Counted from the stretch's first letter, positions 7,027 through 32,000 are shown. The stretch: 32,000 nt of DNA from Propionibacterium ruminifibrarum (GCF_900289195.1 NZ_OMOH01000003.1:296697-328696); one strand, 5' to 3'. Notes: generated from the letters alone by a model not told the origin. Numbers and translations are program-made.

Positions 7027-7093
7027 GGCGGCCTCCTGCGGTGATGCGAACGCGGTCACCTTATCCATGACCAGCCAGAAAAAAACAAGATCT

Positions 7094-7435: not shown

Positions 7436-7640
7436 GGTTCAGCCCATCGTCAGATGGGCTGTCGTAAGAGGGAATTCCGGTGAGAGGCCGGAGCTGTCCC
7501 GCAGCGGTGTATGGGAACAACGTCACAACGAGCACTGGGCCCGATGGCCTGGGAAGCGGTGGTGTAGGAACCGGGAGCGATCCCGAGTGCCCATGAGCCC
7601 GAAGACCTGCCAGCCGCAGCGGCGCGAGCCGCTGCGGAAC
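7436..7640 (+). promoter_or_regulatory. Cobalamin (AdoCbl) riboswitch, + strand, with a downstream GC hairpin as candidate expression platform
   Basis: The core elements appear in canonical order. These are GAGGGAAttCCGGTGAGAGGCCGGAGCTGTCCCGCAGCGGTG (7468-7509), GAGCACTGGGcccgatggCCTGGGAAGCG (7530-7558) and the B12 box GAGCCCGAAGACCTGCC (7595-7611). A 9-bp hairpin lies at 7440-7461. A perfect 10-bp hairpin CCGCAGCGGC-gcga-GCCGCTGCGG lies at 7614-7637. Confidence 0.85.
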
Positions 7641-7891
7641 GTGCCCCGCGGAGGGTCCACGGATCGGAGCGATCGGTGCCCGGCGATGCGCATCATCACC
7701 GGGTCCGGTCACGAAGATCAGTGCCAGCGGTTCCGGCGAACGCCTGCCTGGCGAGCCGGTGGGCGACCACCGGACGAACCAGCAGGGCCGCACCGGAGCC
7801 ACCAGCCCCCGACGTCAGCGCCGGGGCCATGCCAGGTGGGTGCCGGGCTCACGCCCGTCGCCCGCCGATGACCGGCTGGCAGCCAGTCCCC

Positions 7892-7913
7892 GGTGCGCCC
7901 CACCCGGCGCACC
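7892..7913 (+). promoter_or_regulatory. 8-bp GC hairpin (GGTGCGCC-ccaccc-GGCGCACC) ~20 nt upstream of the mutA SD
   Basis: The arms are perfect complements and are followed by CTGACCCTTTCAGGAGCAGGAG. The function is unknown; an attenuator or processing site is possible. Confidence 0.3.
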
Positions 7914-7939
7914 CTGACCCTTTCAGGAGCAGGAGTCGA

Positions 7940-12048: not shown

Positions 12049-13048
12049 GAGCATCGACGTCGATGCGCTGGTCGGCCAGGTCCTGGCCGGCCAGCGCACT
12101 GGCATTGCCCGTGCGATCACCCTGGTGGAGTCGGCCCTGCCTGCGCACCGGCCGCTGGCGCGCAAACTGCTCGCCCAGCTGCTCCCGTACGCGGGCAACG
12201 CCACGCGCGTCGGCCTGACCGGTGTTCCCGGCGCCGGGAAGTCGACGTTCACCGACGCCATGGGCTGCCGGCTGATCGACCGCGGCCACAAGGTGGCGGT
12301 TCTGGCCGTCGACCCGTCGAGCACCCGCACCGGCGGCTCGATCCTCGGCGACCGCACCCGGATGGGCAAGCTCGCCGAGTCCGACTCGGCCTACATCCGC
12401 CCGTCACCGTCCGGTGGCCATCTCGGCGGCGTGGCCCGGGCAACCCGTGAGGCCATGATCATCGTCGAGGCGGCCGGCTACGACACCGTGATCGTCGAGA
12501 CCGTCGGCGTCGGCCAGTCCGAGGTCGCGGTGGCCGGCATGGTCGACACCTTCCTCATGCTCTCCCTGGCCCGTTCGGGCGACCAGCTGCAGGGCATCAA
12601 ACGCGGCATCCTCGAGCTCGCCGACGTCATCGCCGTCAACAAGGCCGATGGCGACAACGCGCCGGCCGCCCGCTTGACGGCCCGCGACCTGTCCATCGCG
12701 ATGAAGCTCATCAATGACGAGTCCAGCGGGCGCCGCACCCCGGTCATGACCTGTTCGGCCCTGACCGGCGACGGGCTGGACGACGTCTGGAAGGCCGTCG
12801 AGGAGCACCGCGCCTGGATCGAGGAGACAGTCGGCCTGGCGCGCTACCGCGCGGACCAGCAGATCGACTGGATGTGGGCCCAGATCGAGAGTCAGGTGCT
12901 CGACTCACTGCGCTCGACCCAGGAGTTGCGTGAACTCGGCCGCGCCCTGGAGGAGAAGGTCGGGGCGTCCACCGAGAGCGCCCTCGACGCCTCGGTCGAG
13001 TTCCTCACCACCTGGGCCGAGCAGGTGCCCGGCTTCCAGTGGGAGTGA
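12041..13048 (+). CDS. meaB: MeaB/ArgK G-protein chaperone of methylmalonyl-CoA mutase
   Basis: Contains the P-loop GVPGAGKST, a [10 protein letters not shown] switch region and the NKADG specificity motif. It overlaps the mutB 3' end by 8 nt. Confidence 0.9.
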
Positions 13049-13073: not shown

Positions 13074-15705
<2,632 letters not shown>

Positions 15706-15821
15706 TCGTTGAGACACGCGGCCGCACGGCACGGGAACCGTGGCGGCGACCGACGACCACGAACTGCCCCGTCCCGCCGGACAATGCTGGACGAGACACT
15801 CTGCAGCGGCGCCGCTCGCCG

Positions 15822-18712: not shown

Positions 18713-19753
18713 TCAGAACTCCCCGCCGCGCTCGTCGGCCAGGCGGGCGCCGGCGTCGACGAAACCCGCGACGGTCACGACGAAGGCGCTCACCGGGCGG
18801 TCGCCCTCGGGGGTGCGGAACCATTCCAGACCCAGGTCGATCCGCGCGCCCCAGCGCTCGGCGCGGTCGACCACCTGCTCGATGACCAGCCCCAGCTGCT
18901 CGGCCGTGTCGAAGGCGAGCGCATAGCTGAGCGAGTCCCGCAGGATTCCCGAGGCCTCCTCAACGGGGATCTGTTCGGGGCTCAGCGAGTCGAGGTGACG
19001 CCGGTAGGCGAGCAACTCGTCGCGAGTGCTGGCGCCCTCGTCGGTGCGCTTGCTCATGAGACGCCCCAGCGAGGCCAGTTCCAGGCCTGCGACGACGATG
19101 AGCACCGGCCCCACCAGGACGCCCCAGTGGCCCGTCGCCATGACCTGAATGACCCCGAGCACCGCCAGGACGAGCCCGATGACGATGACGACACCGCCCG
19201 CCCATCCCCAGCGGTTGTTCACCGTGGAACCATGCTGGAACCAGCCGCGGCCCATCGTGTCCTCGCGCAGCTGGCGCTTGGTGCGCGACAGCACCTGCCC
19301 CGTCGACGTGACGACGCTCGAGAGGGTCACCGAGTCGTCGGGGCCGGTGAAGACCTGGTTGAGCAGGAAGTGCTCGAAACCGTGCAGCCTCTCGCCGTCG
19401 GTCCGCCTCGTCGTGCGGGTGAGCACCCAGTCATGGGCGGGACGGTCGGGATGCGCCAGCACGGTGATGGCCAGGAAACCGCGCTGGGCCAGGTCGATGA
19501 GCGTGATGAGGACGTCCCTGCTGGTCGTCGACTCCTTCAACAGGGTGTTGACCATGCCCGGCGTCAGGCCCGCCGGGGACGTGGTGACCGGCTCGGGTTC
19601 GATGAGTCCGGGACGGTTCACCGGGATCTGCTCGTCATCGGCTCGAAGCCGGCGGGAACGGATGACCGCGGTACTCGCGACGACGACGGCGGCGATACCG
19701 ACGATGAGCACGACGAGCGCCAGTGTGTCCACGATGCAAACCTCCGCAATCAC
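18713..19753 (-). CDS. Membrane protein resembling the C-terminal/TM part of DUF2207 proteins
   Basis: It has an N-terminal TM helix, then …GLTPGMVNTLLKESTTSRDVLITLIDLAQRGFLAI…, then two central TM helices. This pattern is one I associate with DUF2207. A GTG at 19732 preceded by GGAGG is a likelier start than 19753. Confidence 0.5.
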   Translation of the reverse strand: MIAEVCIVDTLALVVLIVGIAAVVVASTAVIRSRRLRADDEQIPVNRPGLIEPEPVTTSPAGLTPGMVNTLLKESTTSRDVLITLIDLAQRGFLAITVLAHPDRPAHDWVLTRTTRRTDGERLHGFEHFLLNQVFTGPDDSVTLSSVVTSTGQVLSRTKRQLREDTMGRGWFQHGSTVNNRWGWAGGVVIVIGLVLAVLGVIQVMATGHWGVLVGPVLIVVAGLELASLGRLMSKRTDEGASTRDELLAYRRHLDSLSPEQIPVEEASGILRDSLSYALAFDTAEQLGLVIEQVVDRAERWGARIDLGLEWFRTPEGDRPVSAFVVTVAGFVDAGARLADERGGEF

Positions 19754-19812
19754 CCTAGCGGCTGAATGTGGCCCCAGCGGAGAGGATCACACACCGGCCA
19801 TGACTACAGCTT

Positions 19813-19829
19813 TGTGAATGACCTGTGAA
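19813..19829 (-). promoter_or_regulatory. Direct repeat TTCACA-N5-TTCACA (read on the minus strand), a Pho-box / OmpR-family-like site in the divergent promoter region
   Basis: The + strand reads TGTGAAtgaccTGTGAA, with 11-bp phasing. A third TGTGAA lies at 19858-19863. Confidence 0.3.
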
Positions 19830-19904
19830 GACCGTGTTTCTCATTGAATGGCATCTTTGTGAACAAGCTATGGCCAGCCTGTCAATTGAATAATTCATGT
19901 CTGG

Positions 19905-19910
19905 CAGAAT
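19905..19910 (+). promoter_or_regulatory. -10-like CAGAAT (TGgCAGAAT) placed for a leaderless transcript of the glycopolymer operon
   Basis: The hexamer ends 6 nt before the GTG at 19917, with no SD. The 11-bp palindrome TGAATAATTCA lies just upstream (19887-19897). Confidence 0.35.
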
Positions 19911-19916
19911 GGACAG

Positions 19917-20414
19917 GTGCACACCCCTGAAGAGAAGAAGGGCCGTGTCACGGGCTACGTTCCCGGCGGCTTCGACATGTTCCACATCGGACACCTCAAC
20001 GTCCTGCGCGCTGCCCGCCAGCACTGCGACCGTCTGGTCGTGGGCGTCGCGGCCGACGAATCGCTGTACCGCATGAAGGGTCGCATGCCCATCATCCCCC
20101 TGCGCGAGCGCTGCGAACTCGTGGCCTCGCTGCGGTTCGTCGACGCCGTCGTGGTCGACCTCGACCAGGACAAGCGCCTCGCCTGGCGTCTTCAGCCCTT
20201 CGACATCCTGTTCAAGGGGGATGACTGGAAGGGCACCCCCAAGGGGGACAAGCTCGAGGCCGAGATGGCAGAGGTCGGCGCCACCGTGTTCTACCTGCCC
20301 TACACGCCGAGCACGTCCAGCACCAAGCTGCGTCGTTTCATCGCCCCCGAGGACTTCACTGACGAGGACGTCCTCGCCGAGGGGGCCGTGCCGAGCGGGG
20401 TGCAGGTCAGGTGA
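19917..20414 (+). CDS. Cytidylyltransferase, glycerol-3-phosphate cytidylyltransferase (TagD/TarD)-like
   Basis: The 165-aa protein has the nucleotidyltransferase motif GGFDMFHIGHLNVL (GxFDxxHxGH) and a TagD-like size. The alcohol-phosphate substrate cannot be read from the sequence. Confidence 0.8.
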   Translation: MHTPEEKKGRVTGYVPGGFDMFHIGHLNVLRAARQHCDRLVVGVAADESLYRMKGRMPIIPLRERCELVASLRFVDAVVVDLDQDKRLAWRLQPFDILFKGDDWKGTPKGDKLEAEMAEVGATVFYLPYTPSTSSTKLRRFIAPEDFTDEDVLAEGAVPSGVQVR

Positions 20415-21166
20415 GCCCTGCCCAGTCCGAGACCGCCGACGAGACCTGGGGGCAGCGGTTCAGCCGCTATCGGGCCGAGCTCGACGCGGCCCAGAAACCC
20501 GGCAATGGCGTTCCCGCCTACACGCGCTGGGTCAACCGCCGCGGCGCCCGGGTCGTGGCGGCCTTCGCCGCCGCCACCGGATGGACGCCGAACAATGTCA
20601 GCGCGATGTCGTTCCTGCTGTCCGCCCTCGGCATGGTCGTCCTCATCGCCTGCCGGCCCGCGGTGTGGGTCGGTGTCGTGGCCGCCGTGTTCCTCGCCCT
20701 CGGCTACCTGTTCGACTCCGCCGACGGCCAGGTCTCGCGGGTCACGCACGCCTCCAGCAAGACGGGGGAGTGGATCGATCACGTCGCCGACGCCTTCCGG
20801 TCACCGGCGATCCACCTGTGCCTGGCCGTCACCACGGTCATCCACACCGACCGCCTCTGGTTCGCGCTCGTGGCCGTCGGCTACGCGTGGGTCACATCCG
20901 GCCAGTTCCTCTCCCAGATCCTCGCCGAGCAGTTCGTGCGGGCCGCCGGTCGCAAGCAGACCCGGGGCGGCACCCTGCGTTCCTTCGTCCTGCTGCCGAC
21001 CGACCCCGGCACCCTGTGCTGGTCGTTCGTCCTGTACGGCCTCGGAGCACCCTTCATCGTGGTCTACACGCTGCTCGCCGTCATCGCCGTCTGCCACTCG
21101 CTGCTGTCGCTGAGCCGCCGCTACCGCGACCTGCGGGCCCTCGACGCGGCCGCCCAGGGGGGCTGA
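20411..21166 (+). CDS. CDP-alcohol phosphatidyltransferase-family integral membrane transferase
   Basis: DSADGQVSRVTHASSKTGEWIDHVADA fits the DG(x2)AR(x8)G(x3)D(x3)D family motif, with S in place of A. The protein is multi-TM. The GTG at 20411 overlaps the upstream stop (GTGA). Confidence 0.8.
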   Translation: MSPAQSETADETWGQRFSRYRAELDAAQKPGNGVPAYTRWVNRRGARVVAAFAAATGWTPNNVSAMSFLLSALGMVVLIACRPAVWVGVVAAVFLALGYLFDSADGQVSRVTHASSKTGEWIDHVADAFRSPAIHLCLAVTTVIHTDRLWFALVAVGYAWVTSGQFLSQILAEQFVRAAGRKQTRGGTLRSFVLLPTDPGTLCWSFVLYGLGAPFIVVYTLLAVIAVCHSLLSLSRRYRDLRALDAAAQGG

Positions 21167-21167
21167 C

Positions 21168-22118
21168 GTGCCGCGCCTGTCCGTTCTCCTGCCGGCGCGC
21201 AATGCCGAGCGGACCGTCGCCGGGGCGGTGCGCTCGACGCTGTCCGCCATGCCCGCCGACGCAGAGCTCCTCGTCGGCGACGACGGTTCCACCGACCGCA
21301 CCGCCGAGCAGGTCCTGGCCGCAGCGACCCGCAGGGGCGTCACCGACCCCAGGCTGCGCATGGTCGAGGTCGCTCCCGGCCCGGGCGGCATCACGCGCGT
21401 CCTCACCCGGCTGCTCGACGTCTCGGACTCGGCGCTGGTCGGGCGCATGGATGCCGACGACATCTGCCTGCCCGGCCGGTTCCGTGCCGCGCTGCGATCC
21501 ATCGGCCGCGGCGACGACATGGTCTTCCAGCAGCAGATCGAACTCCGCGAACCGGCGGACGGCGGAACGCGGCGCCGGATCGTGCCCCGCGCGCCCTACC
21601 CGATCAGCCCCGACGAGTTCGGTCTTCACCTGCTGTTGACCAACCCGGTCTGCCACCCCACGATGGTGGCGACCCGGGAACTTCTCGACCGGGTGGGCGG
21701 GTACCGTGACGTGCCCGCCGAGGACTACGACCTGTGGCTGAGGTCGGCCGCCGCCGGCGGGCGCCTGCGCCGTCTCGGCCGCTGGGGCCTGATCTACCGC
21801 GTCCACCCGGCGCAGATCACCGCCTCCCGGAGCTGGCGGGACGCCTCGTGGGCCGATGAGCGCCAGGCGCAGGCCTTCGCCGACCTGTCCGAGCGGCTCA
21901 CCGGCGCCCGCCTGCGCCGGATCGTCTCGATGAGTGCCCTGCCCCCCGCCGAGCGCGAGGCGGAGATGGCCCTCTTCGCGGCGGCGGTCCGACCGGCCAT
22001 CGACGCCCTCGGCCCCCGGCGGGCCGCCCCCCTCAACAGACGCCTCGAGGCCCGCCAGTCCTGGTTGCGCAACCAGAAGAGTCCTTCCGAGCAGAATCTC
22101 CAAGGAGAGACCGAATGA
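21168..22118 (+). CDS. Family 2 glycosyltransferase
   Basis: LSVLLPARNAERTV…LLVGDDGSTDRT…MDADD is a typical GT2 (GT-A) N-terminal fold with a DxD motif. Confidence 0.85.
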   Translation: MPRLSVLLPARNAERTVAGAVRSTLSAMPADAELLVGDDGSTDRTAEQVLAAATRRGVTDPRLRMVEVAPGPGGITRVLTRLLDVSDSALVGRMDADDICLPGRFRAALRSIGRGDDMVFQQQIELREPADGGTRRRIVPRAPYPISPDEFGLHLLLTNPVCHPTMVATRELLDRVGGYRDVPAEDYDLWLRSAAAGGRLRRLGRWGLIYRVHPAQITASRSWRDASWADERQAQAFADLSERLTGARLRRIVSMSALPPAEREAEMALFAAAVRPAIDALGPRRAAPLNRRLEARQSWLRNQKSPSEQNLQGETE

Positions 22119-23821
22119 GTACCCTCACCCCGCCTCCCACCGGCGGCCCCCAGATCCTGTGGCACGAACTCCAGCGCCGCTGGAGGGAGATCCTCGCGGG
22201 CGTTCTCATCGGCGGCCTGCTCGCGGGGCTGTCCCTCATCATCGGGCCGAGCTCGCACACGGCGACGGCGACCGTCGCGATCACGAACCCCTCGTCGAGC
22301 CCCGAGCCCGCCGCCCGTTCCTCGCTGTCCAGCACCGACATGGTGACCGAGAAGGGGATCGCCACGTCGGCGACCACGCTGCGCCAGGCCCTCAACTCCC
22401 TGGACGAGAAGGACCTGACCCTCGCCGACCTCGAATCAGGCCTCGAGGTCGAGGGGGACACCAATGGCACCATCGTGACGGTCGCCTGGTCGGGTGGTGA
22501 TCGTGATCAGGCCGTCGCAGTGACCAATGCGATCACCGCCGCCTACATCGAGCAGCGCACGGGCCTCACCGAGCAGCGCGCGGACGAGATGCTGGCGACC
22601 GTCACCGAGAAGATCAATGCCCTGAACGAGGAGGCCGCCGGTCTCGACACCGGGACGCCTGCGGGGCAGGTCCGCTCCGCCGCGATCCAGTCCGAACTGT
22701 CCGGCCTGCTCACCGAGCAGGACCAGCTCGCCTCCTACCACGTCACGGCCGCGCGGGTGCTCACCGACGCCGGCGACTCCCCGGACGTCACCGATCCACC
22801 GAGGATGAGGACCCTCGTCGCCGGCCTGCTGATCGGCCTCGTCCTCGGCCTGGCCATCGGTTTCGTTCGTGAGCGCCGCGAGAAGCACGTGCTGGCCGCC
22901 CGCCAGCTCTCCGACCTGACCGGCCTGCCCGTCTGGGGCGCCCAGGATGGTGCCGGCCCCGGCGCACAGTGGGACGCCCCGGCCCAGTTGGCCGCCCTGG
23001 CCGTCGGCAAGGGCTCAGAACTCATCTTGTTGGCCGACGGGTCGGACCGGCGCGCCCTGGCCTTCGGCCAGGCCCTCGGCCGCGCTCGCAGGGCCCAGTC
23101 CGCACCCGCCCCCGTCCTCGTCGACAACCGCATGCCCCTTGCCGAGATCGTCGAGCGGCTCGGCGATGAGGGCCGGATCCTCATCGGCACAGCCACCGGC
23201 GCCTCCCTGAGTGAGCTGCACGAACTACTCGACCAGCTCACCATTGCCGACCGCGACGTCGTGGGTCTCGTCATGCTCGACGGCGATGCCCCCGCGGCGG
23301 GCACGCGGATCACCAACGGGCAGCAGCCTCAAACCCCCACCGAGCCTCGGAATCCCTCGTCCCAGGGCGCCGCCGAGTCCTGGCGTGCGGCGTTCCAGAG
23401 GCCCGCCGCAGAACCCCCGCTGACTCCGCAAGTCCCCGAGCCCCAGCCCGTCATGTCCCCGCCCACCGGGCCTGCGAGCGCCACGACCGCCGGGGATGCG
23501 CCTTTCTCCCCGCAGGTCGCGGCCGAAGCCCCGCACCCGGCTCCCCCCTCGGAAGTCCCCATGTCGAGGACCGCCGTGACCGAGGCCGGTGGCGCGGAGC
23601 AGCCCACTGCGCTGCGGGGACCAGACGCCTCGCCGGATGCCGGCACCCCCGCGGAGCCCGTGTCCGCCGGCGGGGCGGAGCCCGCCGCCGAACCGGCGGA
23701 GAGCACCGCCCGACAGGAGGACGACAGGCCCGTGCCGCCGCGCAACAGGGCCCGATCCGCGGCCGACTACCGGAGAATGATCCGTCGTCAGAACCGCGGG
23801 AGGAAACATGGCGGCCGCTGA
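22115..23821 (+). CDS. Wzz/PCP-like chain-length determinant with a degenerate BY-kinase-like domain and a Pro-rich disordered tail
   Basis: Two TM helices (ILAGVLIGGLLAGLSLIIGP and LVAGLLIGLVLGLAIGFV) flank a ~190-aa coiled extracytoplasmic segment. The cytoplasmic part has only remnants of a P-loop (LAVGKGSELILLADGSD). A ~170-aa P/A/E-rich tail ends in a basic patch. The ATG at 22115 overlaps the upstream stop (ATGA). Confidence 0.65.
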   Translation: MSTLTPPPTGGPQILWHELQRRWREILAGVLIGGLLAGLSLIIGPSSHTATATVAITNPSSSPEPAARSSLSSTDMVTEKGIATSATTLRQALNSLDEKDLTLADLESGLEVEGDTNGTIVTVAWSGGDRDQAVAVTNAITAAYIEQRTGLTEQRADEMLATVTEKINALNEEAAGLDTGTPAGQVRSAAIQSELSGLLTEQDQLASYHVTAARVLTDAGDSPDVTDPPRMRTLVAGLLIGLVLGLAIGFVRERREKHVLAARQLSDLTGLPVWGAQDGAGPGAQWDAPAQLAALAVGKGSELILLADGSDRRALAFGQALGRARRAQSAPAPVLVDNRMPLAEIVERLGDEGRILIGTATGASLSELHELLDQLTIADRDVVGLVMLDGDAPAAGTRITNGQQPQTPTEPRNPSSQGAAESWRAAFQRPAAEPPLTPQVPEPQPVMSPPTGPASATTAGDAPFSPQVAAEAPHPAPPSEVPMSRTAVTEAGGAEQPTALRGPDASPDAGTPAEPVSAGGAEPAAEPAESTARQEDDRPVPPRNRARSAADYRRMIRRQNRGRKHGGR

Positions 23822-25049
23822 CGCACTGCCGGGGGAGATCGACGAGGCCGGTTCGCGCATCGTCCAGTGGGACCGCTCCACCGGCCGGCTGAGGGTCGTC
23901 AGCGACTTCGGTCAGGCCACCACCCTCGTCCTCGTGCGCGACGGCGCCCGCACCGTCGGCGCCGTGACCATCGCCACCGGCCAGGACATCGCCACGGCCC
24001 CCGAGGTGCGGGCGCTGCCCCCAGCGGCCGACAGGGCCTGGAAGGAGGGTGCCGGTGCGGGACTGTCGGCCTCGGTGGTGTTGTGCACGACAGGTGACTG
24101 CGACCTGCTGCACCCGGCCGTCGAGGCCCTCCTGGCCCAGACGCATCCCGACTTCGAACTCGTCGTCGTTGACAACGCCCCGGCCTCGGGCAGGGTCCGC
24201 CGCGTGCTCGGCGATGTCGAGGACGCCAGGATGCGGATCATCGAGCAGCCCGCCCGGGGCCTCTCCCACGCCCGTAACGCCGGTGCGGCGGCGGCGAGCC
24301 GACCCTTCATCGCCTTCACCGATGACGACGCCATCGTCGACCCCGGTTGGCTCGTCGCCCTGCTCGACCCCTTCGCAGCCGACCCCGATCGCGTCATCGG
24401 CGCGACGACCGGGATGGTGCTGCCCGCCGAGCTGCGCTACCGGGCCCAGCGCTGGTTCGAGTCACGTGGCGGCTTTCCCAAGGACGACGTACCGCGCGTA
24501 TGGATGGCGTGCCGACCGGCCCCGCGCCCGGTACGCGACTTCGGCGCGCCCGGTGAGGGCGGCCCGCTGTACCCGGTGACGACCGCGCGCGTCGGCGCCG
24601 GCGTCTGCATGGCCTACCGGGCCGAGGCGCTGGCCGGCGCCGGCAGTTTCGATGTCGCACTCGGCGCGGGCACCCCGACCCGCGGGGGAGAGGACCTCGA
24701 CATGTTCGCGCGCGTGTTGCGCGCCGGATGGGCCATCGTCCACACCCCCGACGCGGTGCTGCACCACCGGCACCGCCGGGACGAGGCAGGCCTGGACACC
24801 CAGGTCCGCGGCAACGGCTCCGGCACGGCGGCGCTGCTCACCAAGTCGGTGCTCGAGCACCCGAGCACGCTGCTCACCCTGGCAGGGCGCCTGCCCGCTG
24901 TGGCGGCCCGGGTCAGGCCCGGGTCCGACCGGGTCGCCGGGACCGACGACGACACGCCCGGCTCTCTCACCAGGTCGGAGATCAAGGGTTTCCTCGAGGG
25001 GCCGGTGCTCTATGCCCGATCGGCGTGGTCCGCGAGGCGGGCGCGGTGA
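23808..25049 (+). CDS. Family 2 glycosyltransferase with a ~95-aa N-terminal extension
   Basis: LSASVVLCTTGDCDLL…ELVVVDNAP…AFTDDDAIVDPGW…GGEDLDMF are typical GT2 motifs. It overlaps the previous gene by 14 nt. Confidence 0.85.
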   Translation: MAAADALPGEIDEAGSRIVQWDRSTGRLRVVSDFGQATTLVLVRDGARTVGAVTIATGQDIATAPEVRALPPAADRAWKEGAGAGLSASVVLCTTGDCDLLHPAVEALLAQTHPDFELVVVDNAPASGRVRRVLGDVEDARMRIIEQPARGLSHARNAGAAAASRPFIAFTDDDAIVDPGWLVALLDPFAADPDRVIGATTGMVLPAELRYRAQRWFESRGGFPKDDVPRVWMACRPAPRPVRDFGAPGEGGPLYPVTTARVGAGVCMAYRAEALAGAGSFDVALGAGTPTRGGEDLDMFARVLRAGWAIVHTPDAVLHHRHRRDEAGLDTQVRGNGSGTAALLTKSVLEHPSTLLTLAGRLPAVAARVRPGSDRVAGTDDDTPGSLTRSEIKGFLEGPVLYARSAWSARRAR

Positions 25050-26488
25050 GGGCTCGACGAGCACTCGCGAGCGGCCGCTGGGACCGTTCACCCGGCCGCG
25101 GGCGGTGGCAGCGTACGACGGCCCGGGGGCTGTGGCGCCGCCCAGCGGTCGGCCGGGCCGGCAGGCCGGTGGAACTCGAGGCGCAGTCCCTGCCGGCCTG
25201 GCCGTTCGTCGCGGCCTTCGGCAGCTACATCATCTGGTGGTTCGTCGGCATCGGGGACATGATCTGGCCGATCATGGCCGCCGTCATGCTCGTGCTCATG
25301 GTGCGGCGGCGTGGCCTGCGGTTCCCCCGCGGCTGGGCCATCTGGGCCTTCTTCCTGCTCTGGGCGACGATCTCGATCGTCGAGTGTGACACCGCCGGAC
25401 GTGCGCTGGGTGCGCTCTACCGTCTGGCGATGCTGTTCGCCGCCACCGTCTTCGCCTTCTATGTCTACAACGCCCGCAGCACCATCACGCTGCGCACCGT
25501 CGGCTCGGCGATGAGCCTGTTCCTGTTGTCCGCCGTACTCGGCGGGCTCCTCGCGATGATCGCTCCCGAACTCCAGATCAGCACACCGTTGTCTCATGTC
25601 CTGCCCGGCGCGCTCACGTCGAACAGTTTCGTCCACGAACTCGTCTACCGCTCCACCACCCAGTGGATCGAGAACTCGTGGGTGCAGACCGATCCGCGCC
25701 CGAGCGCCCCATTCGTCTACGCGAACACGTGGGGCAACGTCTTCTCGCTCGTCTTCCCGATCGTCCTGGTCCATACCGTGCAACTGTGGCGCGAGTACTC
25801 GCCGCGTCGCTGGCCGGTGACGATCCTCGCCGTCGGCTCGCTCATCCCGGCGGCCGCCACGCAGAACCGTGGCATGCTCGTCGGCCTGGCGGTCATCGCC
25901 CTGTGGGTGGGCGTCCAGCAGGCCAGGACCGGCCGTACCCGCCAGGTGCTCGCCGGGTTCGTCGTCGCCATGACCGCAGTGCTGGTCTGGGTCGTCTCAC
26001 CGATGGGCCGGTCGTTGTTCAGCCGGGTCCAGACGAGCACATCGACCGAGGACCGGCTCATCAATTACCTGGAGACGGTCAACACACTCCGCGAGTCGCC
26101 CCTGCTGGGCTTCGGCGCCCCGCGCCCGTCCACCGCGTCGTGGTTGCCCTCGCTCGGCACCCAGGGCCAGTTCTGGACGGTCCTGTTCTCGCACGGGGTC
26201 GTCGGCGCGATCCTGTTCATGGCCACCTTCGTCGCCGCCGCCGTGTACGCCTGGCGCTCCACGGACACCTACGGCGCGGTCCTCGGCGGCATCGCAGTGG
26301 CCACGTTCGTGGAGTCGTTCTACTACGGGATGACGACGGGCCTGATGGTCTCGCTCGTCGCCGTCGCCCTCCTGGTGCGTCAGCGTGAGACCGGCGAGAC
26401 CACTGGCCCGCTGCGAGGGCAGGTCAGCACGTCGGATCGTCGGGGAAGGTCTCGCTGGCGAGTTTCCAGGAGCCATCGGGATTCGTGA
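25046..26488 (+). CDS. O-antigen polymerase/ligase (Wzy_C)-like polytopic membrane protein
   Basis: I chose the GTG at 25046 because it gives a GTGA overlap with the GT2 stop and is in frame with track ORF 24728..26488. The protein has about 10-12 TM helices and a large loop (…SLIPAAATQNRGMLVGLAVIALWV…), as in O-antigen ligase family proteins. The start is uncertain; another GTG near 25169 is possible. Confidence 0.7.
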   Translation: MRARRALASGRWDRSPGRGRWQRTTARGLWRRPAVGRAGRPVELEAQSLPAWPFVAAFGSYIIWWFVGIGDMIWPIMAAVMLVLMVRRRGLRFPRGWAIWAFFLLWATISIVECDTAGRALGALYRLAMLFAATVFAFYVYNARSTITLRTVGSAMSLFLLSAVLGGLLAMIAPELQISTPLSHVLPGALTSNSFVHELVYRSTTQWIENSWVQTDPRPSAPFVYANTWGNVFSLVFPIVLVHTVQLWREYSPRRWPVTILAVGSLIPAAATQNRGMLVGLAVIALWVGVQQARTGRTRQVLAGFVVAMTAVLVWVVSPMGRSLFSRVQTSTSTEDRLINYLETVNTLRESPLLGFGAPRPSTASWLPSLGTQGQFWTVLFSHGVVGAILFMATFVAAAVYAWRSTDTYGAVLGGIAVATFVESFYYGMTTGLMVSLVAVALLVRQRETGETTGPLRGQVSTSDRRGRSRWRVSRSHRDS

Positions 26489-27026
26489 GCGTGAAGATGG
26501 TCAGCGAGCGCTTCGGCTGCGAGGCGCGCAGATCGGTGCCCTGGTCGTTGAGCACCTGCACCGCCGAGGAGTCGACGCAGGCCTCGACCTCAAGGCTCGT
26601 CCCGTCCTCGGAGGTGTTCGTGATCCGGGCGTTCTCGATCGTCGGGGCGCCTTCCTGGTGCACGCCGGTGTTCATGAACTCCTCGGACTGCGCCAGGTAC
26701 TCGTCGAGCGCGCTGCCGGTGAGTACATCGGACAGGTCGACGGGGTTGCCCGGGTCCGACAGGGCCGTGGCCGTGCGGGTCAGGGCCTCAAGCGTCGTGT
26801 CCGCGGCCTCTCCGTCGGTCAGGGGAGTGGCGGGCGCGGTGCGTCCCGGCGTGGCGTTCTCGGGTGGGGCGACGGTCGACGGGGCGCTGGACGGGGAGCC
26901 CTCCGAGTCCTCCCCGGGCGTCGCCCGCAGGAAGCGGACCGCCGTGACGATGAGGACGAGCAGGAGCACTGCGCAGATCACTGCGACGACCAGCCGCCTG
27001 CGTGAATGAACCGTCGTGAAGGCCAT
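26424..27026 (-). CDS. Single-pass membrane-anchored extracytoplasmic protein, unknown function
   Basis: MAFTTVHSRRRLVVAVICAVLLLVLIVTAV forms the TM anchor. It is followed by a P/S/T/A-rich linker and a ~120-aa globular domain with two Cys, one of them the C-terminal residue. A GTG at 27035 is an alternative start. The 3' end overlaps the Wzy-like gene by 65 nt. Confidence 0.5.
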   Translation of the reverse strand: MAFTTVHSRRRLVVAVICAVLLLVLIVTAVRFLRATPGEDSEGSPSSAPSTVAPPENATPGRTAPATPLTDGEAADTTLEALTRTATALSDPGNPVDLSDVLTGSALDEYLAQSEEFMNTGVHQEGAPTIENARITNTSEDGTSLEVEACVDSSAVQVLNDQGTDLRASQPKRSLTIFTLTNPDGSWKLASETFPDDPTC

Positions 27027-27095
27027 GGGACACACCAGTCAGTGGGAAACGGGGGGACTAGGGCTCAGATGCTACCCCAGGAGAAGGATTGTTGA

Positions 27096-28604
27096 ATGAG
27101 TGAGCACAAAGAGGATCGCACGGCCCTGGCCCGGGGCGGCATCATCGGTTTCGTCGGCGCAACGCTCAGCGCCGTGCTCGGCTTCCTGCTCTCCGTGCTG
27201 CTGGCCCGCCTGCTCGGTTCGGCCGGGTCGGGCGTCGTCACGCAGGCCACGGGGGTCTTCTCGCTCATCATGGCCATGGCCAAGCTGGGCTTCGACTCGG
27301 CCGCGATCTACCTCATGCCGCGCCTGCGCATCGGCAGTCCCGAGGAGATCCGTTCCTGCCTGACCTACATGGGCACCCTGACGGTCGGCATCTCACTCGG
27401 TGTCGTCCTCGTGCTCGAGATCGTGGCGCCGCGCATCTGGGGGGCCGATGACCCGTCGGTGCTCAACGCCGTCCGGGCGATCATGTGGTTCATCCCCGTC
27501 GGCTCCCTGACGGTCGTCGCGGCCGCGGCCCTGCGGGCCCTCGGCAACATGCGCGAGTACGTCCTGGTTCAGAACATCACCCTGCCCGTCCTGCGCCCGG
27601 TCCTCGTCGCCGTGGCCGTCGCGCTGGGCGGCTCGTTGACCGCCGTGTCGGTCTCCTGGGCGCTGCCGTTCGTCGTCGTCCTGTTGCTCAGCTGGTTCCT
27701 CCTGCTGCGCCACCTGCCCCCCGAAGCCGAGACCGGTCCCCAGCCCCGCTGGCCCGGCGCCCGGCGCCGGCGCGCCATCATGGGTTTCGCCCTGCCCCGC
27801 ACCCTCTCCGCCACCCTCGAGCAGGGGCTGACCTGGCTCGACGTCCTCATCGTCGGCGCGCTCGCCGGCAACGCCGCGGCAGGCATCTACGGCGGGGCCA
27901 GCCGCTACATCCAGGCCGGGCTCATCGTGGACACCGCTCTGCGCATCGTCGTCTCGCCGCAGTTCAGCAGGCTCATGCACACGAACAAGATGGATGAGCT
28001 GCGTGCCCTCTACTCGACGGCGACGATCTGGCTGGTGCTCTTCGCCACCATGATCCACCTGCTCATGGCGATCTTCGCGCCCTGCCTCATGCTGATCCTC
28101 GGCCCGGAGTTCCTGCCGGGCTCGTGGGTGCTGGTCATCCTGTGCTGCGGAGCGATCGTCACCTTCTGCGCCGGCAACATTCACTCGCTGCTCATCATGA
28201 GCGGGCGGAGCGGCTGGGCCGCCTTCAACAAGGCCGTCGTCCTGGTGACGAACATCATCGGCAACCTCGTGCTCATCCCGGTCCTGGGGATCAACGGGGC
28301 GGCGCTCAGCTGGGCGGTGTGCATGGTCGTCGACGCCGCGCTGGCCACGATTCAGGTCGTCCACTTCCTCGACGTGCGGCCGAACGTCGTCGACGTCCTG
28401 CGGCCGCTGGCCGGCGTCGGGGTCAGTGTTGGCATCCCGGCCGGCCTTGTTGCCCTGGTTCTTGGACGAGATTCGTTCCTCGGCATGGGGATCGGGGTCG
28501 TGGCCGCCCTGGTCTGCTTCGCCGTCATGTGCCGACTGCTGCGGGAGCCTTTGCACTTGTCAGGGCTCGGATCAATGCTAAAGTCAAAGACCAGGAACAG
28601 CTGA
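27096..28604 (+). CDS. Wzx-type oligosaccharide flippase (MOP/PST family)
   Basis: The 502-aa protein has ~14 TM helices and the typical PST layout. The ATG is preceded by AGGAGAAGGA. Confidence 0.85.
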   Translation: MSEHKEDRTALARGGIIGFVGATLSAVLGFLLSVLLARLLGSAGSGVVTQATGVFSLIMAMAKLGFDSAAIYLMPRLRIGSPEEIRSCLTYMGTLTVGISLGVVLVLEIVAPRIWGADDPSVLNAVRAIMWFIPVGSLTVVAAAALRALGNMREYVLVQNITLPVLRPVLVAVAVALGGSLTAVSVSWALPFVVVLLLSWFLLLRHLPPEAETGPQPRWPGARRRRAIMGFALPRTLSATLEQGLTWLDVLIVGALAGNAAAGIYGGASRYIQAGLIVDTALRIVVSPQFSRLMHTNKMDELRALYSTATIWLVLFATMIHLLMAIFAPCLMLILGPEFLPGSWVLVILCCGAIVTFCAGNIHSLLIMSGRSGWAAFNKAVVLVTNIIGNLVLIPVLGINGAALSWAVCMVVDAALATIQVVHFLDVRPNVVDVLRPLAGVGVSVGIPAGLVALVLGRDSFLGMGIGVVAALVCFAVMCRLLREPLHLSGLGSMLKSKTRNS

Positions 28605-28653
28605 GGGTAACCCGTAGGGGTGTTTTCATAGGCAATACCCAGCGCGACCCAAT

Positions 28654-28676
28654 GTTCACAACAGTTTTATGTGAAC
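28654..28676. promoter_or_regulatory. Inverted repeat GTTCACA-N9-TGTGAAC in the AT-rich region upstream of the fibrinogen-like protein gene
   Basis: The 7-bp arms are perfect. The repeat lies ~13-35 nt upstream of a -10-like TGgCATGAT (28687-28694) and ~70-90 nt upstream of the ATG at 28745. Confidence 0.35.
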
Positions 28677-28744
28677 CTTCAAACGTGGCATGATGTGCGC
28701 GTAAGCAGTTCTGACACTGAGCCGTCTGCACCCCCGAGGAAGAA

Positions 28745-31700
28745 ATGCGCCACCTCCGCACGCGCGGGGCAGCCCTTGCTGTCCCGCTCATGATCATCGC
28801 GTCCATCATGTCGGCCCTCCCCTCCGCGGCCGCCGATCCGGCCGCGGACGATGACACCGCCGTCACCACCAGCGCCACGGCGCTCGCCCACGATGGCAGG
28901 ACCGAGGCCACCGCGGCCGCTTCCTGCTGGGAGATCAAGCAGAACGACCCCGGCTCGGCCGACGGCACCTACTGGCTGCAGACGCCAGCCATGGACGCTC
29001 CGGGGCAGTTCTTCTGCGACCAGACCACCGATGGCGGCGGATGGGTCATGATCGGGCGCGGCCGCGAGGGCTGGCAGAGCTACACTCAGGGCTGGGGCGA
29101 CCAGTCCCTGTTGCTGACCCGGGATCGCTCGGGCGCCAACCTCGATGTCGCCCAGCTGCCGGCCGCCACCGTGGACGGCCTGCTGAACAACCAGCCGGTC
29201 GCCAGCCTCGACTCGGGCTACCGCGTCGTGCGCGCCGCGAACGCTCAGGGCACCAAGTGGCAGACCATCGACATCCGCCCCACGCAGACTCAGGGCTGGG
29301 TCTGGCCGTTCAAGACCTACACCACGTACAGAGCTCGCTTCGACAACGGTGGCTGGAACTACGGCACCACCATGGACGAACAGCTGCTGCCCAACTGCTA
29401 CTGGACCGCCTGCGCCAAGTCGATCGACGTGCGGTCGAAGTCGGAGAACGGCTTCAAGGCCGGCTGGGCCTACTCGAAGTTCGCATTCCTGCGCACCGGC
29501 ACCTTCATCACCCAGCCCAAGAGCGGCAGCCAGTACCTGCCCTTCGCCGAGATGTACGTCCGGCCGCAGGTCACCTCGGACGATCCGGGATTCGCCGCCA
29601 TCGCCGACTCCGGCACCGCCGCGATCCCCTCTCGCACCGACAACGCAGCCTCCGAGTACGCCCAGAAGACCAATTGGGGCGTGAGCGGCAACCTCACCGG
29701 CTCGGTCACCGAGGGCAGCATTCAGGTGCAGGCCTTCGCCCAGATCGGCAGCACCATGTTCGTCGGCGGCAACTTCACCGGCGTGCAGCGCGGCTCGAAC
29801 GGGGAGGTGCACGACACGACGGCCCTCGCCGCCTTCGATGCGAACACCGGCGAGTGGAACGGCGCGCTCACCTTCAGCTTCGACAACCAGGTGCACGACC
29901 TGCTGGCCCTGCCGGACGGCAGGCTCCTCGTCGCAGGCGATTTCACCACCGTCAACGGCTCGGCCCATGCGGGCACCGTCGTCATCGACCCGGCCACCGG
30001 AGCGGTCGACGAGTCCTGGGACCTGCAGATCGTCAATCGGCTCTCGAGCGGCACGATGACCGTGAAGACCCTCACCACCGACGGCACCTACGTCTACCTG
30101 GGCGGTGCGTTCACGCACCTGTCCGGCCAGGGCGTCCAGAACTCCTACGGCCGGGCCGCGGCCCGCGTGGACGTGTCCACCGGCAAGCCCGACCGCTCGT
30201 GGAACCCCGAGTTCAACGGCTCGGTGTGGGGCTCCAGCGTCGACACCGACACCGGCAAGTACTTCGCCGGTGGCTACTTCTCGAAGTCGGGAACCACCGA
30301 CGTCAAGTGGGCGGCCTCGATCTTCACGGCCCCCGGCGCCCGGGTCGATGACTCGTTCACCTTCGTCAGCTCGGTCACGGGCTACACCTACACGTACACG
30401 AACCCGAAGAAGTCCTACCAGCAGGCCGTCGACGTCGTGGACGGCAACGTCTACTTCGGCGGCTCCGAGCACAACCTGTTCCGCTACGACATCGCCACCA
30501 TGAACCGCCAGTCCGGCTCGATCACGCTGGCCAACGGCGGCGACATCCAGGCCATCGAGTCGAACAACGGCGTGACCTACGCGTCCTGCCACTGCTCCGA
30601 CTTCGCCTACCAGGATGCCTACAGCTGGGATGAACTGACCAAAGAGGCCTGGACCGAGGCCGATCCGATCCGCTGGGTCGGCGCCTGGGACAGCGCCACC
30701 GGCGAACAACTGAACTGGACCCCCTACAACCTGAGCTCCACCCGCTCCACCGGCGCCTGGGCGCTCAAGGTCACCGACAGCGGCATCCTGTGGGCCGGCG
30801 GCGACTTCAACAACTCGTACACCTCGCCCACCGGCCAGCAGTGGAACGGCGGGTTCGCCCTGTACGGTCCGCGCGACAACACCCCCACCGAGGCGCCCGG
30901 CCTGCTGCGCGTCACCGGCTCGGATGACGACACCGTGACCCTGGCCTGGGGTGCCGTCCCCGACGCCACCGGTTACCAGGTGCTGCTCGACGACCGCACG
31001 ATCGCCACGACGACCGCCACCTCGGTCACCGTTCCCCGTGCCGGCAACCAGCGCTACTTCGTCCGCACCGTTGACGGCAACGGCAACATCAGCGCCTCCT
31101 CGCCGGTCGTCGTCGCCCCGGAATCCGGCGCGGCCGACGACTCCAGCCCTGTTCTGCTCGAGGACGACGCGACATGGTCCTATCTGTCAGCTGACACCGT
31201 CCCCGCCGAGAACTGGACCGGCGCCGACTACGACGACTCGTCCTGGTCCTCCGGTGCGGCCCCCATCGGCTACGGCGACGCCGAACTGAACACGGCGATC
31301 ACCCCGGCGCCGGCGCTGAGCCGCCCGGTCACCACCTACTTCCGCAGCTCGTTCACCGTCGGCGACGTCTCGGCCATCAGCGGCGTGTCCGTCTCCTATG
31401 TCGCCGACGACGGGGCCGTGGTCTACGTCAACGGCACCGAGGTCAGCCGGACCCGCCTCGATGACGGAGCCGTCACGGCGACCACCCGCGCCAATGCGGT
31501 CGTCAAGACGGCGGCGGCCCGGGCCGACCGCACGGTCGTCACGGTGCCCGCCTCGGCGCTCGTAGACGGCGAGAACACCATCGCCGTCGAGACGCACGTG
31601 AACTACCGTTCCAGCGCGTCCATGACGATGCAGGCCATGGTCACTCGCGTCGACCAGGCCGACATGGCCGGCGAGCCCGCACCCGATCCGGCGGCCGAAC

Positions 31701-32000
31701 CCGCTGATCCGGGGGTCGAACCCGCTGGCGGTGAGGCCGCCGACCCCGCGGAGGAACCCGGGGCCGAGCCCGCCGATCCTGAAGCGGAACCCGCCGGTGA
31801 GGCCACGACCCCACCCGAGCCCGTCGACCCCCTCCAGCCCGTCGACGCCACGAACGCCACGGGCGAGGTGATCCCGGCCGGCTCGCAGTGGTCCTACCGC
31901 TACGAGACCACGAAGGCCGAGGACGGCTGGAACGATGACGCCGACCTCGGCGAGTGGAAGACCGGCGCCGGCCCGATCGGCTGGGACAGCAGGAACAGCA
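28745..32000 (+). CDS. Large secreted mosaic protein: signal peptide, fibrinogen-related domain, multi-blade beta-propeller, FN3, and two beta-sandwich modules split by a P/E/A linker (3' end beyond the window)
   Basis: It is missing from the ORF track because it has no stop in the window; I translated it myself. The ATG at 28745 is preceded by GAGGAAG. The signal peptide is MRHLRTRGAALAVPLMIIASIMSALPSAAA. The frame stays open to position 32000, giving at least 1085 codons. The 676-aa minus ORF 28679..30709 is its antisense shadow. Confidence 0.85.
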   Translation, partial: MRHLRTRGAALAVPLMIIASIMSALPSAAADPAADDDTAVTTSATALAHDGRTEATAAASCWEIKQNDPGSADGTYWLQTPAMDAPGQFFCDQTTDGGGWVMIGRGREGWQSYTQGWGDQSLLLTRDRSGANLDVAQLPAATVDGLLNNQPVASLDSGYRVVRAANAQGTKWQTIDIRPTQTQGWVWPFKTYTTYRARFDNGGWNYGTTMDEQLLPNCYWTACAKSIDVRSKSENGFKAGWAYSKFAFLRTGTFITQPKSGSQYLPFAEMYVRPQVTSDDPGFAAIADSGTAAIPSRTDNAASEYAQKTNWGVSGNLTGSVTEGSIQVQAFAQIGSTMFVGGNFTGVQRGSNGEVHDTTALAAFDANTGEWNGALTFSFDNQVHDLLALPDGRLLVAGDFTTVNGSAHAGTVVIDPATGAVDESWDLQIVNRLSSGTMTVKTLTTDGTYVYLGGAFTHLSGQGVQNSYGRAAARVDVSTGKPDRSWNPEFNGSVWGSSVDTDTGKYFAGGYFSKSGTTDVKWAASIFTAPGARVDDSFTFVSSVTGYTYTYTNPKKSYQQAVDVVDGNVYFGGSEHNLFRYDIATMNRQSGSITLANGGDIQAIESNNGVTYASCHCSDFAYQDAYSWDELTKEAWTEADPIRWVGAWDSATGEQLNWTPYNLSSTRSTGAWALKVTDSGILWAGGDFNNSYTSPTGQQWNGGFALYGPRDNTPTEAPGLLRVTGSDDDTVTLAWGAVPDATGYQVLLDDRTIATTTATSVTVPRAGNQRYFVRTVDGNGNISASSPVVVAPESGAADDSSPVLLEDDATWSYLSADTVPAENWTGADYDDSSWSSGAAPIGYGDAELNTAITPAPALSRPVTTYFRSSFTVGDVSAISGVSVSYVADDGAVVYVNGTEVSRTRLDDGAVTATTRANAVVKTAAARADRTVVTVPASALVDGENTIAVETHVNYRSSASMTMQAMVTRVDQADMAGEPAPDPAAEPADPGVEPAGGEAADPAEEPGAEPADPEAEPAGEATTPPEPVDPLQPVDATNATGEVIPAGSQWSYRYETTKAEDGWNDDADLGEWKTGAGPIGWDSRNS
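28925..29570 (+). other. Fibrinogen C-terminal-like (FReD) domain of the secreted protein (approximate bounds)
   Basis: CWEIKQNDPGSADGTYWLQTPAMDAPGQFFCDQTTDGGGWVMIGRGREGWQSYTQGWGD follows the eukaryotic FReD pattern C.EI…G.Y.I.P…F.V.CDM.TDGGGWTV.QRR.DGS…W..Y. A later Cys pair (NCYWTAC) is also present. Confidence 0.7.
31668..31848 (+). repeat. Low-complexity imperfect tandem repeat encoding a P/E/A/D linker
   Basis: GAACCCGC(T/C)G-type units recur. The translation is GEPAPDPAAEPADPGVEPAGGEAADPAEEPGAEPADPEAEPAGEATTPPEPVDPLQPVD. Confidence 0.6.

Follow-up and report, generated by a model that had tools for sequence, protein, structure and literature searches.

A predicted secreted protein with a diverged fibrinogen-related head and a beta-propeller, encoded within a Wzx/Wzy glycopolymer cassette of Actinomycetota

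Wzx/Wzy pathways are textbook knowledge, but what happens outside the membrane in these pathways is poorly defined for Gram-positive Actinomycetota. Other systems in which an extracytoplasmic protein is encoded beside glycan-synthesis genes have been described: in Streptomyces, the extracytoplasmic propeller copper-radical oxidase GlxA is complexed with the membrane glycan synthase CslA (PMC11022532), and genes for S-layer proteins with SLH domains adjoin those for the synthesis of a secondary cell-wall polymer or glycan (PMC6030368). Fibrinogen-related domains (FReDs) are also already on record in bacteria, both as a domain and as a protein family named by NCBI, NF040941 (GGGWT_bact). Here we analyze a stretch of 32,000 nucleotides from Propionibacterium ruminifibrarum (GCF_900289195.1 NZ_OMOH01000003.1:296697-328696; hereafter the window), the last gene of which starts at 28745 on the + strand and codes for a protein with a FReD-type head, a beta-propeller, an FN3 module and a duplicated beta-sandwich. 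The explanation that we favor, with moderate confidence, is that this Sec-secreted, non-sortase protein is a dedicated extracytoplasmic component of a conserved Actinomycetota Wzx/Wzy cell-wall glycopolymer cassette. We found no description of the family in the literature searched, including under the topics of bacterial FReDs and actinobacterial Wzy/CDP-alcohol loci, though absence there is no proof; nor did we find in it any mention of a full FReD-type fold that lacks the canonical site, of an obligate fusion of propeller and FN3, of an embedding in Wzx/Wzy cassettes throughout the phylum, of the co-occurring membrane partner or of the conserved propeller residue set.

Frame 1 of 28745-32000 (+) runs through 1085 codons without a stop, which is the first 89% of a 1217-aa protein. 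A protein of that full length in the database (P0001) is 100% identical to the product over the window part, and a contig (L001) that is 99.8-99.9% identical to window positions 18823-32000 holds the complete gene with its 3' end. The 132 residues beyond the window complete the second beta-sandwich and end in ...FDAEATLER, and the orthologues end alike. Since the complete product is encoded on this near-identical contig, the gene is intact and is no pseudogene or frameshifted remnant; a stop or frameshift just past the window, the possibility that an earlier sequence-only reading of the window had named as fatal to its proposal, is thus excluded. The peptides quoted in that reading all occur in this frame, the multidomain architecture that it proposed, with predicted secretion, is supported, and the native composition that it noted agrees with a GC3 of 0.92, like that of the neighboring genes, in a window with a GC content of ~0.70. 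The features of the gene are:

28736..28739, +: Shine-Dalgarno GAGG, 5 nt before the ATG at 28745 (sequence reading)
28745..32000, +: gene for the secreted FReD-like/propeller/FN3/2x beta-sandwich protein, codons 1-1085 of 1217, the remaining 132 codons lying beyond the window
28745..28831, +: Sec-type signal peptide, aa 1-29, MRHLRTRGAALAVPLMIIASIMSALPSAAA followed by DP (sequence reading)
28886..29599, +: diverged FReD-like head, aa ~48-285 (NF040941, AlphaFold2/Foldseek, family invariants)
28922-29053, +: GGGWT_bact core of the head, aa 60-103 (NCBIfam NF040941)
29642..30880, +: predicted beta-propeller of ~7 blades, aa ~300-712 (DUF5122/Rax2 family matches, motif spacing)
30890..31129, +: FN3 module, aa ~716-795 (match of the family profile to PDB 1k85; Pfam fn3 hits among family members)
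31142..31648, +: beta-sandwich module 1, aa ~800-968, weakly CBM-like (PF14683)
31649..31861, +: acidic Pro/Ala/Glu-rich linker, aa ~969-1039 (translation reading)
31862..32000, +: start of beta-sandwich module 2 (full extent aa 1040-1217), cut by the window end (homology to module 1)

Secretion is predicted from the N-terminus, which reads as a basic n-region, a hydrophobic core of 17 aa and an A-A-A cleavage motif. In 84 full-coverage representatives of the family the head domain starts at a median residue of 42, just behind the signal peptide. The sequence-only reading had also raised a sortase/LPXTG anchor in the then missing C-terminus; inspection of the full-length protein (...SLTFDAEATLER) and of its orthologues revealed no LPXTG motif, hydrophobic stretch or basic tail in either.

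The gene had been placed next to a glycopolymer locus. The locus is present as proposed, with GT2, Wzz-like, GT2, Wzy_C and Wzx genes upstream; however, the gene lies inside it rather than beside it, because wzx ends only 140 nt upstream with no + strand terminator in between, and on the L001 contig a WecG/TagA-family glycosyltransferase gene starts 3 nt past its stop. A promoter-like site is seen at 28557-28584. The Wzx, Wzy and glycosyltransferase genes form one same-strand cluster, whose members in the window, together with a small gene of the opposite strand, are:

19917-20414, +: cytidylyltransferase, at the head of the locus
20411-21166, +: CDP-alcohol phosphatidyltransferase family
21168-22118, +: first GT2 glycosyltransferase
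22115-23821, +: PCP/Wzz-like protein (Wzz match sub-threshold, 20.1 bits against 25.5)
23808-25049, +: second GT2 glycosyltransferase
25169..26488, +: Wzy-type polymerase/O-antigen-ligase family (Wzy_C at 34.8 bits passes its cutoff; start as called on L001)
26424..27035, -: small membrane-anchored partner protein (ARC6-like_IMS 21 bits against a cutoff of 22.8)
27096..28604, +: Wzx-type flippase, immediately before the FReD gene (Polysacc_synt at 75.5 bits exceeds the Pfam cutoff)

The two GT2 genes score 54.8 and 75.1 bits, both above their Pfam cutoffs. No priming phosphoglycosyl transferase was found in the window, and in an oral Actinomyces locus (L002) a Bac_transf gene is found nearby. 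The cytidylyltransferase, CDP-alcohol transferase and WecG/TagA genes of the cassette suggest that its product resembles teichoic acid, contains phosphate, is assembled on a lipid carrier and has a TagA-type linkage unit. The PCP/Wzz-like gene differs between near-identical sequences: around window positions 23532-23611 the L001 contig is 78 bp longer through a tandem-repeat copy-number difference, giving a product of 594 aa against 568 aa in the window, and the homologue in an uncultured Propionibacterium (L004) has 462 aa.

The same gene order is found in this uncultured Propionibacterium, in oral Actinomyces (L002/L003) and in a distant representative (L007), and in the two most distant representatives tested (L006, L005) it is adjacent to genes for Wzx/Wzz/Wzy or for a CDP-alcohol transferase. 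Micrococcales typically have the small partner first and then the FReD protein, followed by CDP-alcohol transferase, GT2, Wzy, Wzx and PCP-like. To count such linkage we built hidden Markov models (HMMs) from the locus proteins and scanned with them all open reading frames (ORFs) of 78 genome loci, kept from at least 319 species-representative relatives, with a reach of 10 kb. Wzx or Wzy was found within 10 kb in 50/78 loci and both in 46/78; the small partner was found in 45, GT2 in 42, the PCP-like protein in 38, the CDP-alcohol transferase in 35, the cytidylyltransferase in 19 and WecG in 16. When only the loci whose upstream flank spans 8 kb or more are considered, the count for Wzx or Wzy is 46/63. 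In the ~1.4 Mb scanned about one Wzx would be expected by chance, a figure that assumes 1-3 per genome and is not a computed control. The synteny is thus far above chance, and this, together with the embedding in the locus, makes the link to the neighboring polymer proposed earlier a likely one.

The cassette appears to be conserved as a whole. Between the window and the Actinomyces L002 locus, which belong to different orders, Wzx is 62% identical, GT2 57%, Wzy 53%, WecG 50%, the FReD protein 47% and the small partner 43%; these identities across orders indicate that the cassette makes a conserved polymer rather than a hypervariable capsule or antigen. Wzx (62%) and Wzy (53%) are unusually alike for a Propionibacterium-like genome and Actinomyces, which could reflect either a conserved polymer or horizontal movement of the whole cassette between host-associated actinobacteria.

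The small partner has no above-threshold Pfam match. It begins with a transmembrane helix, or with a lipoprotein-type ...GC signal (Rothia and others), which is followed by a Ser/Ala/Pro-rich low-complexity linker and then by a conserved domain of ~100 aa; this domain contains a C(V/I)DSS motif and ends in an invariant FP(D/N)(D/N)P.C, which reads FPDDPTC in the window. A homologue occurs in 45 of the 78 loci, often directly upstream of the FReD gene, and in Micrococcales the partner gene ends a few nucleotides before it (5 nt in L005, where the partner is encoded at 9198-9995). In the window the partner gene and the Wzy gene converge, and ~65 nt at the 3' end of the latter are shared between them. 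We infer that the partner is a membrane-tethered extracytoplasmic adaptor.

We then turn to the modules of the protein, beginning with the head. Its hallmark FReD core, which the sequence-only reading had noticed, is confirmed by NF040941 with 71 bits (E 6.1e-20) over aa 60-103, covering model positions 1-46/46 against a curated cutoff of 30 bits. A check against Pfam PF00147 (Fibrinogen_C), recommended earlier, is borderline: with a gathering cutoff of 22 bits, the full protein stays below it with 19.3 bits, the isolated domain passes it with 22.3 bits, and the match covers only profile positions 13-62/221; it recurs at E <= 0.001 in 17/50 family members. A 34-sequence profile of the family recovers intelectins (2e-10) and tenascin/angiopoietin (1e-6) from the PDB, in each case over the first ~65 residues only. 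Among solved structures, the intelectins XEEL, hITLN-1 and a lamprey serum lectin are closest in sequence, with tenascin, angiopoietin, FIBCD1 and fibrinogen coming next, and all sequence alignments of the head to FReDs or intelectins end near residue 110, even with the family profile.

Structure prediction extends this resemblance to the whole head. An AlphaFold2 model of aa 45-300 based on the diverse 34-sequence alignment reached a pLDDT of 85.1 and a pTM of 0.85, and was preferred to one based on 18 orthologues only, which was discarded with a pLDDT of 47. With this model, the top 50 Foldseek matches in the PDB are FReDs only, with a probability of 1.00 and E-values of 4e-7 to 5e-6; they include M-, L- and H-ficolin, tenascins, FGL1, angiopoietins, FIBCD1 and fibrinogen, and not one intelectin chain. 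The matches span ~245-260 aligned columns, but with TM-scores of only 0.37-0.48, an rmsd of 8-9 A and 12-19% identity. Because the top 50 are all FReDs while these scores and identities are low, the model supports the head being a genuine but strongly diverged FReD. The opposite opinion, that the resemblance is an artefact of a short motif, might appeal to the ~50-65 residues over which the sequence aligns with animal FReDs and to the TM-scores below 0.5, but it is at odds with the full-length alignments that fill the top 50 at a probability of 1.00; together with its companion version, in which an animal FReD was recently acquired and kept its animal function (see below), we regard it as very improbable.

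Conservation in the head is concentrated at the N-terminal end. C61, C91, D92 and G97-G99 are invariant in 34 diverse representatives, and W100 is nearly invariant in these and invariant in 50 full-length representatives; thus the N-terminal (A-subdomain) disulfide C61/C91 and the C-D/E-x4-GGGW-T/V motif are present. The invariants of the head family are S60, C61, G74, W77, C91, D92, GGG97-99, W110, G116, R160, W187, G240 and P274. The C-terminal strand of the head is EMYVRP, and the ...RP ending is shared with the animal FReD consensus. Model confidence is lowest at residues ~160-215 (pLDDT 56-73), a part that also has no conserved polar residues and that we take to correspond by position to the ligand-binding P-subdomain of animal FReDs. 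The second Cys pair, C218/C223, is lineage-specific, and the P-domain disulfide is hence not kept family-wide.

At the sequence level no conserved acidic motif is seen between W187 and G240, either among orthologues or across the family. For the Ca2+ loop, hhalign of the family profile with the fibrinogen gamma C-domain sequence aligned the first ~60 columns only, and neither the intelectin fold extension nor the Ca2+-dependent exocyclic-diol site was found, sequence matches to intelectins being limited to aa 59-108. In sequence terms, nothing equivalent to the canonical Ca2+ loop or acetyl pocket can be detected in the head. The ficolin/angiopoietin-like acetyl-binding lectin suggested by the sequence-only reading is accordingly not upheld, with similarity that ends at ~residue 110, no conserved Ca-loop motif and a lineage-specific second Cys pair. 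We had also entertained an intelectin-type head binding the glycerol-phosphate diol of a polymer made by the cytidylyltransferase and CDP-alcohol transferase of the locus; this was dropped as a specific claim because the structural matches favor classical FReDs and the intelectin site residues are unalignable.

These results bear directly on the proposal that the protein is a lectin or adhesin for foreign glycans, such as those of host mucins or competitors, with a ficolin- or intelectin-like site and with a locus position of no functional meaning. The FReD-type fold itself speaks for it, as does the fact that sequence searches rank intelectins, lectins for microbial glycans, first; furthermore, many relatives come from oral Actinomyces, Schaalia and Rothia, and cyanophage tail-fibre-like proteins, presumably receptor-binding, carry the same kind of head. 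Nevertheless, neither the Ca2+/acetyl-site motifs nor the P-domain disulfide is conserved, intelectins are missing from the top 50 structural matches, the Wzx/Wzy synteny is family-wide and far above chance, and Actinomycetota of soil and water carry the family equally. Hence, we judge this proposal improbable; the reading as a host or competitor adhesin is weakened, and it may hold in individual lineages.

The GG.F motifs of the propeller at 341, 397, 453 and 509 (a period of 56 aa), and again at 685, fit ~7 blades, and thus agree with the 6-7 blades counted earlier, for which profile support is sub-threshold only: DUF5122, Rax2 and Reg_prop all match this protein below their Pfam thresholds, even when modules are searched in isolation. 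Across the family, DUF5122 is recovered in 30/50 members and Rax2 in 15/50. Neither the single sequence, nor the domain profile, nor two whole-protein profiles found PDB sequence relatives of the propeller, and no Kelch match from Pfam was obtained for the protein, the isolated domain or the 50 family members. The label galactose oxidase carried by one orthologue was rejected, as the whole-protein profiles of the family, searched up to E <= 10, hit no AA5/GlxA chain. Since the isolated modules stayed below their Pfam cutoffs, the labels 'DUF5122' and 'galactose-binding/CBM' are leads only.

The propeller carries a set of conserved polar residues, in this protein Y451, E575, H576, D600, Q602, C615-H616-C617, D687 and D711. 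Among 90 representatives, Y451 is kept in 88, E/Q575, H576, D600, Q602 and H616 in 87 each, C615 and C617 in 74 each, D687 in 82 and D711 in 85, alongside W672 (86) and W683 (88). This near-invariance persists although the head domains are only 30-40% identical to the one described here, and the set therefore resembles an active or metal site, to which we refer as a candidate site.

The remaining modules conform to the earlier description. The FN3-like module is substantiated by the match of the family profile to the FN3 domain of chitinase A1 (PDB 1k85, E 9.4e-11), and the beta-sandwich is indeed duplicated, modules 1 and 2 sharing 37% identity (E 1e-26) on either side of a linker whose length and sequence differ among orthologues. 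As to the suggested galactose-binding-like profile, what was obtained is a weak resemblance to the 'CBM-like' PL4 domain III: PF14683 scores 16-21.5 bits depending on the query, below its cutoff of 27, and matches 17/18 orthologues with a best E of 1e-5. The searches that found no PDB sequence relatives of the propeller (single sequence, domain profile and two whole-protein profiles) found none of the beta-sandwich modules either. Between the window protein and that of Actinomyces L002, beta-sandwich 1 is 62% identical, the propeller 55%, the head 44% and beta-sandwich 2 40%; given the values for beta-sandwich 1 and the propeller, the head is among the faster-evolving parts of the protein.

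Taken together, these observations allow the favored explanation, a dedicated extracytoplasmic component of the cassette, to be put in mechanistic terms. Repeat units would be flipped and polymerized, after which the FReD-propeller protein would engage the polymer outside the membrane near the machinery, where the small membrane-anchored or lipoprotein partner may hold it at the outer face of the membrane. The FReD head and the CBM-like beta-sandwiches might bind the nascent or mature polymer, with lineage-variable loops in the P-subdomain of the head, while the Tyr/His/His/Asp/Gln set of the propeller could form a conserved site that binds the polymer or acts on it catalytically, be it by processing, trimming or transfer. 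What we observe are the architecture, the FReD-type fold, an intact gene embedded in the operon, the synteny throughout the family and the conserved residue set; secretion, attachment to the polymer made by the locus, catalysis, interaction with the partner and the chemistry of the polymer are what we propose. Several points weigh against this explanation. The canonical FReD ligand site is not detectably conserved, and the head may bind no glycan at all. The propeller and the beta-sandwiches have no solved or curated relative, so that the case for an enzyme comes from a pattern of conserved residues. The partner gene of the window is on the opposite strand. Wzx or Wzy was missing from 17 of the 63 long-flank loci, some of these misses apparently reflecting tandem paralogues that push the cassette past 10 kb (several in Rothia) and the seed HMMs being weak for Acidimicrobiia. 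Finally, the synteny fits equally well a protein that is cargo displayed on the polymer.

This last point deserves to be weighed in full. The protein could be a non-enzymatic, S-layer-like or wall lectin or adhesin, displayed on the locus polymer or glycosylated with it; by analogy with S-layer/SLH proteins, the CBM-like modules might anchor it to the wall with the FReD head and propeller facing outward. A signal peptide, no covalent anchor and two CBM-like modules speak for this, as do C-terminal modules that vary in the family (PKD, LamG and one CW_binding_2) and tandem paralogues in Actinomyces and probably Rothia. The Wzy_C family, moreover, also includes O-oligosaccharyltransferases. Against this stand the near-invariant propeller set, which in the face of 30-40% identical heads would suit an active site better than an exposed adhesin surface, the pace of evolution of the protein, about as slow as that of the cytoplasmic and membrane enzymes of the locus, and the partner, since display on the wall needs no dedicated membrane-anchored protein. 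The conserved polar set and the partner thus tilt the balance toward machinery, and we hold the cargo explanation to be rather unlikely.

A bolder version of the favored explanation is that the FReD-propeller protein and its NTF2-like membrane-anchored partner constitute an unrecognized, phylum-wide module of Wzy-dependent wall-glycopolymer assembly with a catalytic propeller and a polymer-reading head. The propeller would then catalyze, for example, the trimming, transfer or ligation of lipid-linked polymer. We offer this as a tentative possibility; if it were true, the FReD-type lectin fold would have handled bacterial self glycans anciently and independently of animal innate immunity.

The phyletic spread of the family was wider than anticipated. 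Bacterial occurrences had been thought rare, and the sequence-only reading had considered a horizontal origin; yet a search with the head (256 aa) returned 1220 clusters at 50% identity with E <= 1e-3, of which 119 have E <= 1e-30, and at least 319 relatives were found in species-representative genomes (one per species). The 78 loci are almost all from Actinomycetota, with genera such as Actinomyces, Schaalia, Pauljensenia, Arachnia, Propionicimonas, Rothia, Arthrobacter, Kocuria, Microbacterium, Brachybacterium, Nocardioides, Amycolatopsis and Planobispora, along with Acidimicrobiia. The core of FReD, propeller and FN3 is whole in 90/99 long representatives, whereas the C-terminal modules are variable and include CBM-like, RGI-lyase beta-sheet, PKD, LamG and in one case CW_binding_2 domains. 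The earlier statement that such proteins bear a name-only annotation is correct, the NF040941 label being attached to orthologues in NCBI and UniRef. The family is as common in soil and water lineages (Arthrobacter, Microbacterium, Nocardioides and Acidimicrobiia) as in host-associated ones, and this speaks against a host-glycan adhesin as its general role. The distribution also bears on the recent acquisition of an animal FReD mentioned above: the occurrence in both Actinomycetes and Acidimicrobiia, relatives whose heads are only 30-42% identical to this one, the native GC3 and the conserved context all argue against it, and the deep phylum-wide spread, the conserved synteny and the native composition jointly weigh against a recent transfer from animals.

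Several relatives are worth recording in their own right. In Actinomyces the FReD-propeller gene occurs as tandem paralogues (L002, 6261-9773 and 10001-13471), the two products of 1170 and 1156 aa being 50% identical, and gene spacing suggests the same in Rothia (L023, L025-L030, L051). Four giant proteins of 2390-4522 aa (P0130, P0132, P0199 and P0264) display 8-15 GGGW motifs, mostly ~200-260 aa apart, and probably consist of many diverged FReD-like domains in series; a lipoprotein signal is present in P0130, and P0132 and P0199 are Cys-rich, secreted-looking and possibly eukaryotic. Tail-fibre-like proteins of cyanophages (Synechococcus, Prochlorococcus) have FReD-type heads that were matched in the BFVD with E-values of 4e-7 to 5e-5, about as well as animal FReDs match the bacterial head; their role is presumably receptor binding.

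Elsewhere in the window, two further regions drew our attention. A cobalamin riboswitch (RF00174, 87.4 bits) lies at 7418-7628 (+) directly upstream of a B12-dependent operon (7676-13048, +) encoding the small and large subunits of methylmalonyl-CoA mutase and meaB; the divergent BtuFCD-like ABC transporter (4086-7068, -) is encoded on the other strand. To place an 'off' switch for B12 before an enzyme that requires B12 is an unusual logic. At 13129-15732, two long ORFs overlap on opposite strands with one real gene at an end of each: on the + strand this is purA, whose Pfam domain occupies aa 419-835 in an ORF of 841 aa, and on the - strand it is an inosine-uridine nucleoside hydrolase, at aa 530-853 in an ORF of 867 aa. 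The long N-terminal extensions of both are high-GC ORF artefacts.

If the favored explanation holds, the protein would fill a gap in how wall polymers are assembled or displayed, and might serve as a target or help to determine phage receptors, in hundreds of species that range from the abundant oral Actinomyces, Schaalia and Rothia through food and commensal Propionibacterium to soil genera. Bacterial fibrinogen-like domains now look common, ancient in one phylum and tied to self glycans, without the canonical binding-site motifs of their animal counterparts.

How does this protein compare with the systems known so far? With animal FReDs (ficolins, tachylectin-5A, FIBCD1, angiopoietins and tenascins) it shares the overall predicted fold, the first disulfide and the CD....GGGW motif; it differs in that the TM-scores reach only 0.4-0.48 at 12-19% identity, in that the Ca2+ loop is not detectable in the bacterial head, and in its placement at the N-terminus of a large multidomain protein, whereas the animal FReD forms the C-terminus of a collagen or coiled-coil stalk. 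The intelectins or X-type lectins (hITLN-1 4wmq, XEEL 4wmo, lamprey 7e1e) are its best sequence matches over the first ~50 residues, and they, like the bacterial head, retain the N-terminal FReD signature only; but the alignment ends at ~residue 110, their Ca2+/diol residues are unalignable, and none is found in the top 50 structural matches. GlxA-CslA offers an analogy in the form of an extracytoplasmic propeller protein that is encoded beside a membrane glycan-synthesis machine in an actinobacterium and works together with it. That system is synthase-dependent and not of the Wzx/Wzy type, no sequence relationship emerges in the family profiles, and evidence for a Cu site or Tyr-Cys cofactor as in GlxA is not seen in the FReD-propeller protein. 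S-layer/SLH loci are similar in that a secreted surface-protein gene stands among TagA/WecG-type wall-polymer genes and attachment may be non-covalent; here, however, SLH domains are absent, a pyruvyltransferase was not seen, the modules are of other kinds and a conserved candidate active site is present. Another close entity is NF040941 itself, of which the protein is a clear member (71 bits against a cutoff of 30). Where that model describes a 46-aa motif and is silent on function, the family examined here has a diverged FReD fold of ~240 aa that is nearly always fused to a propeller and FN3 and is linked to Wzx/Wzy genes.

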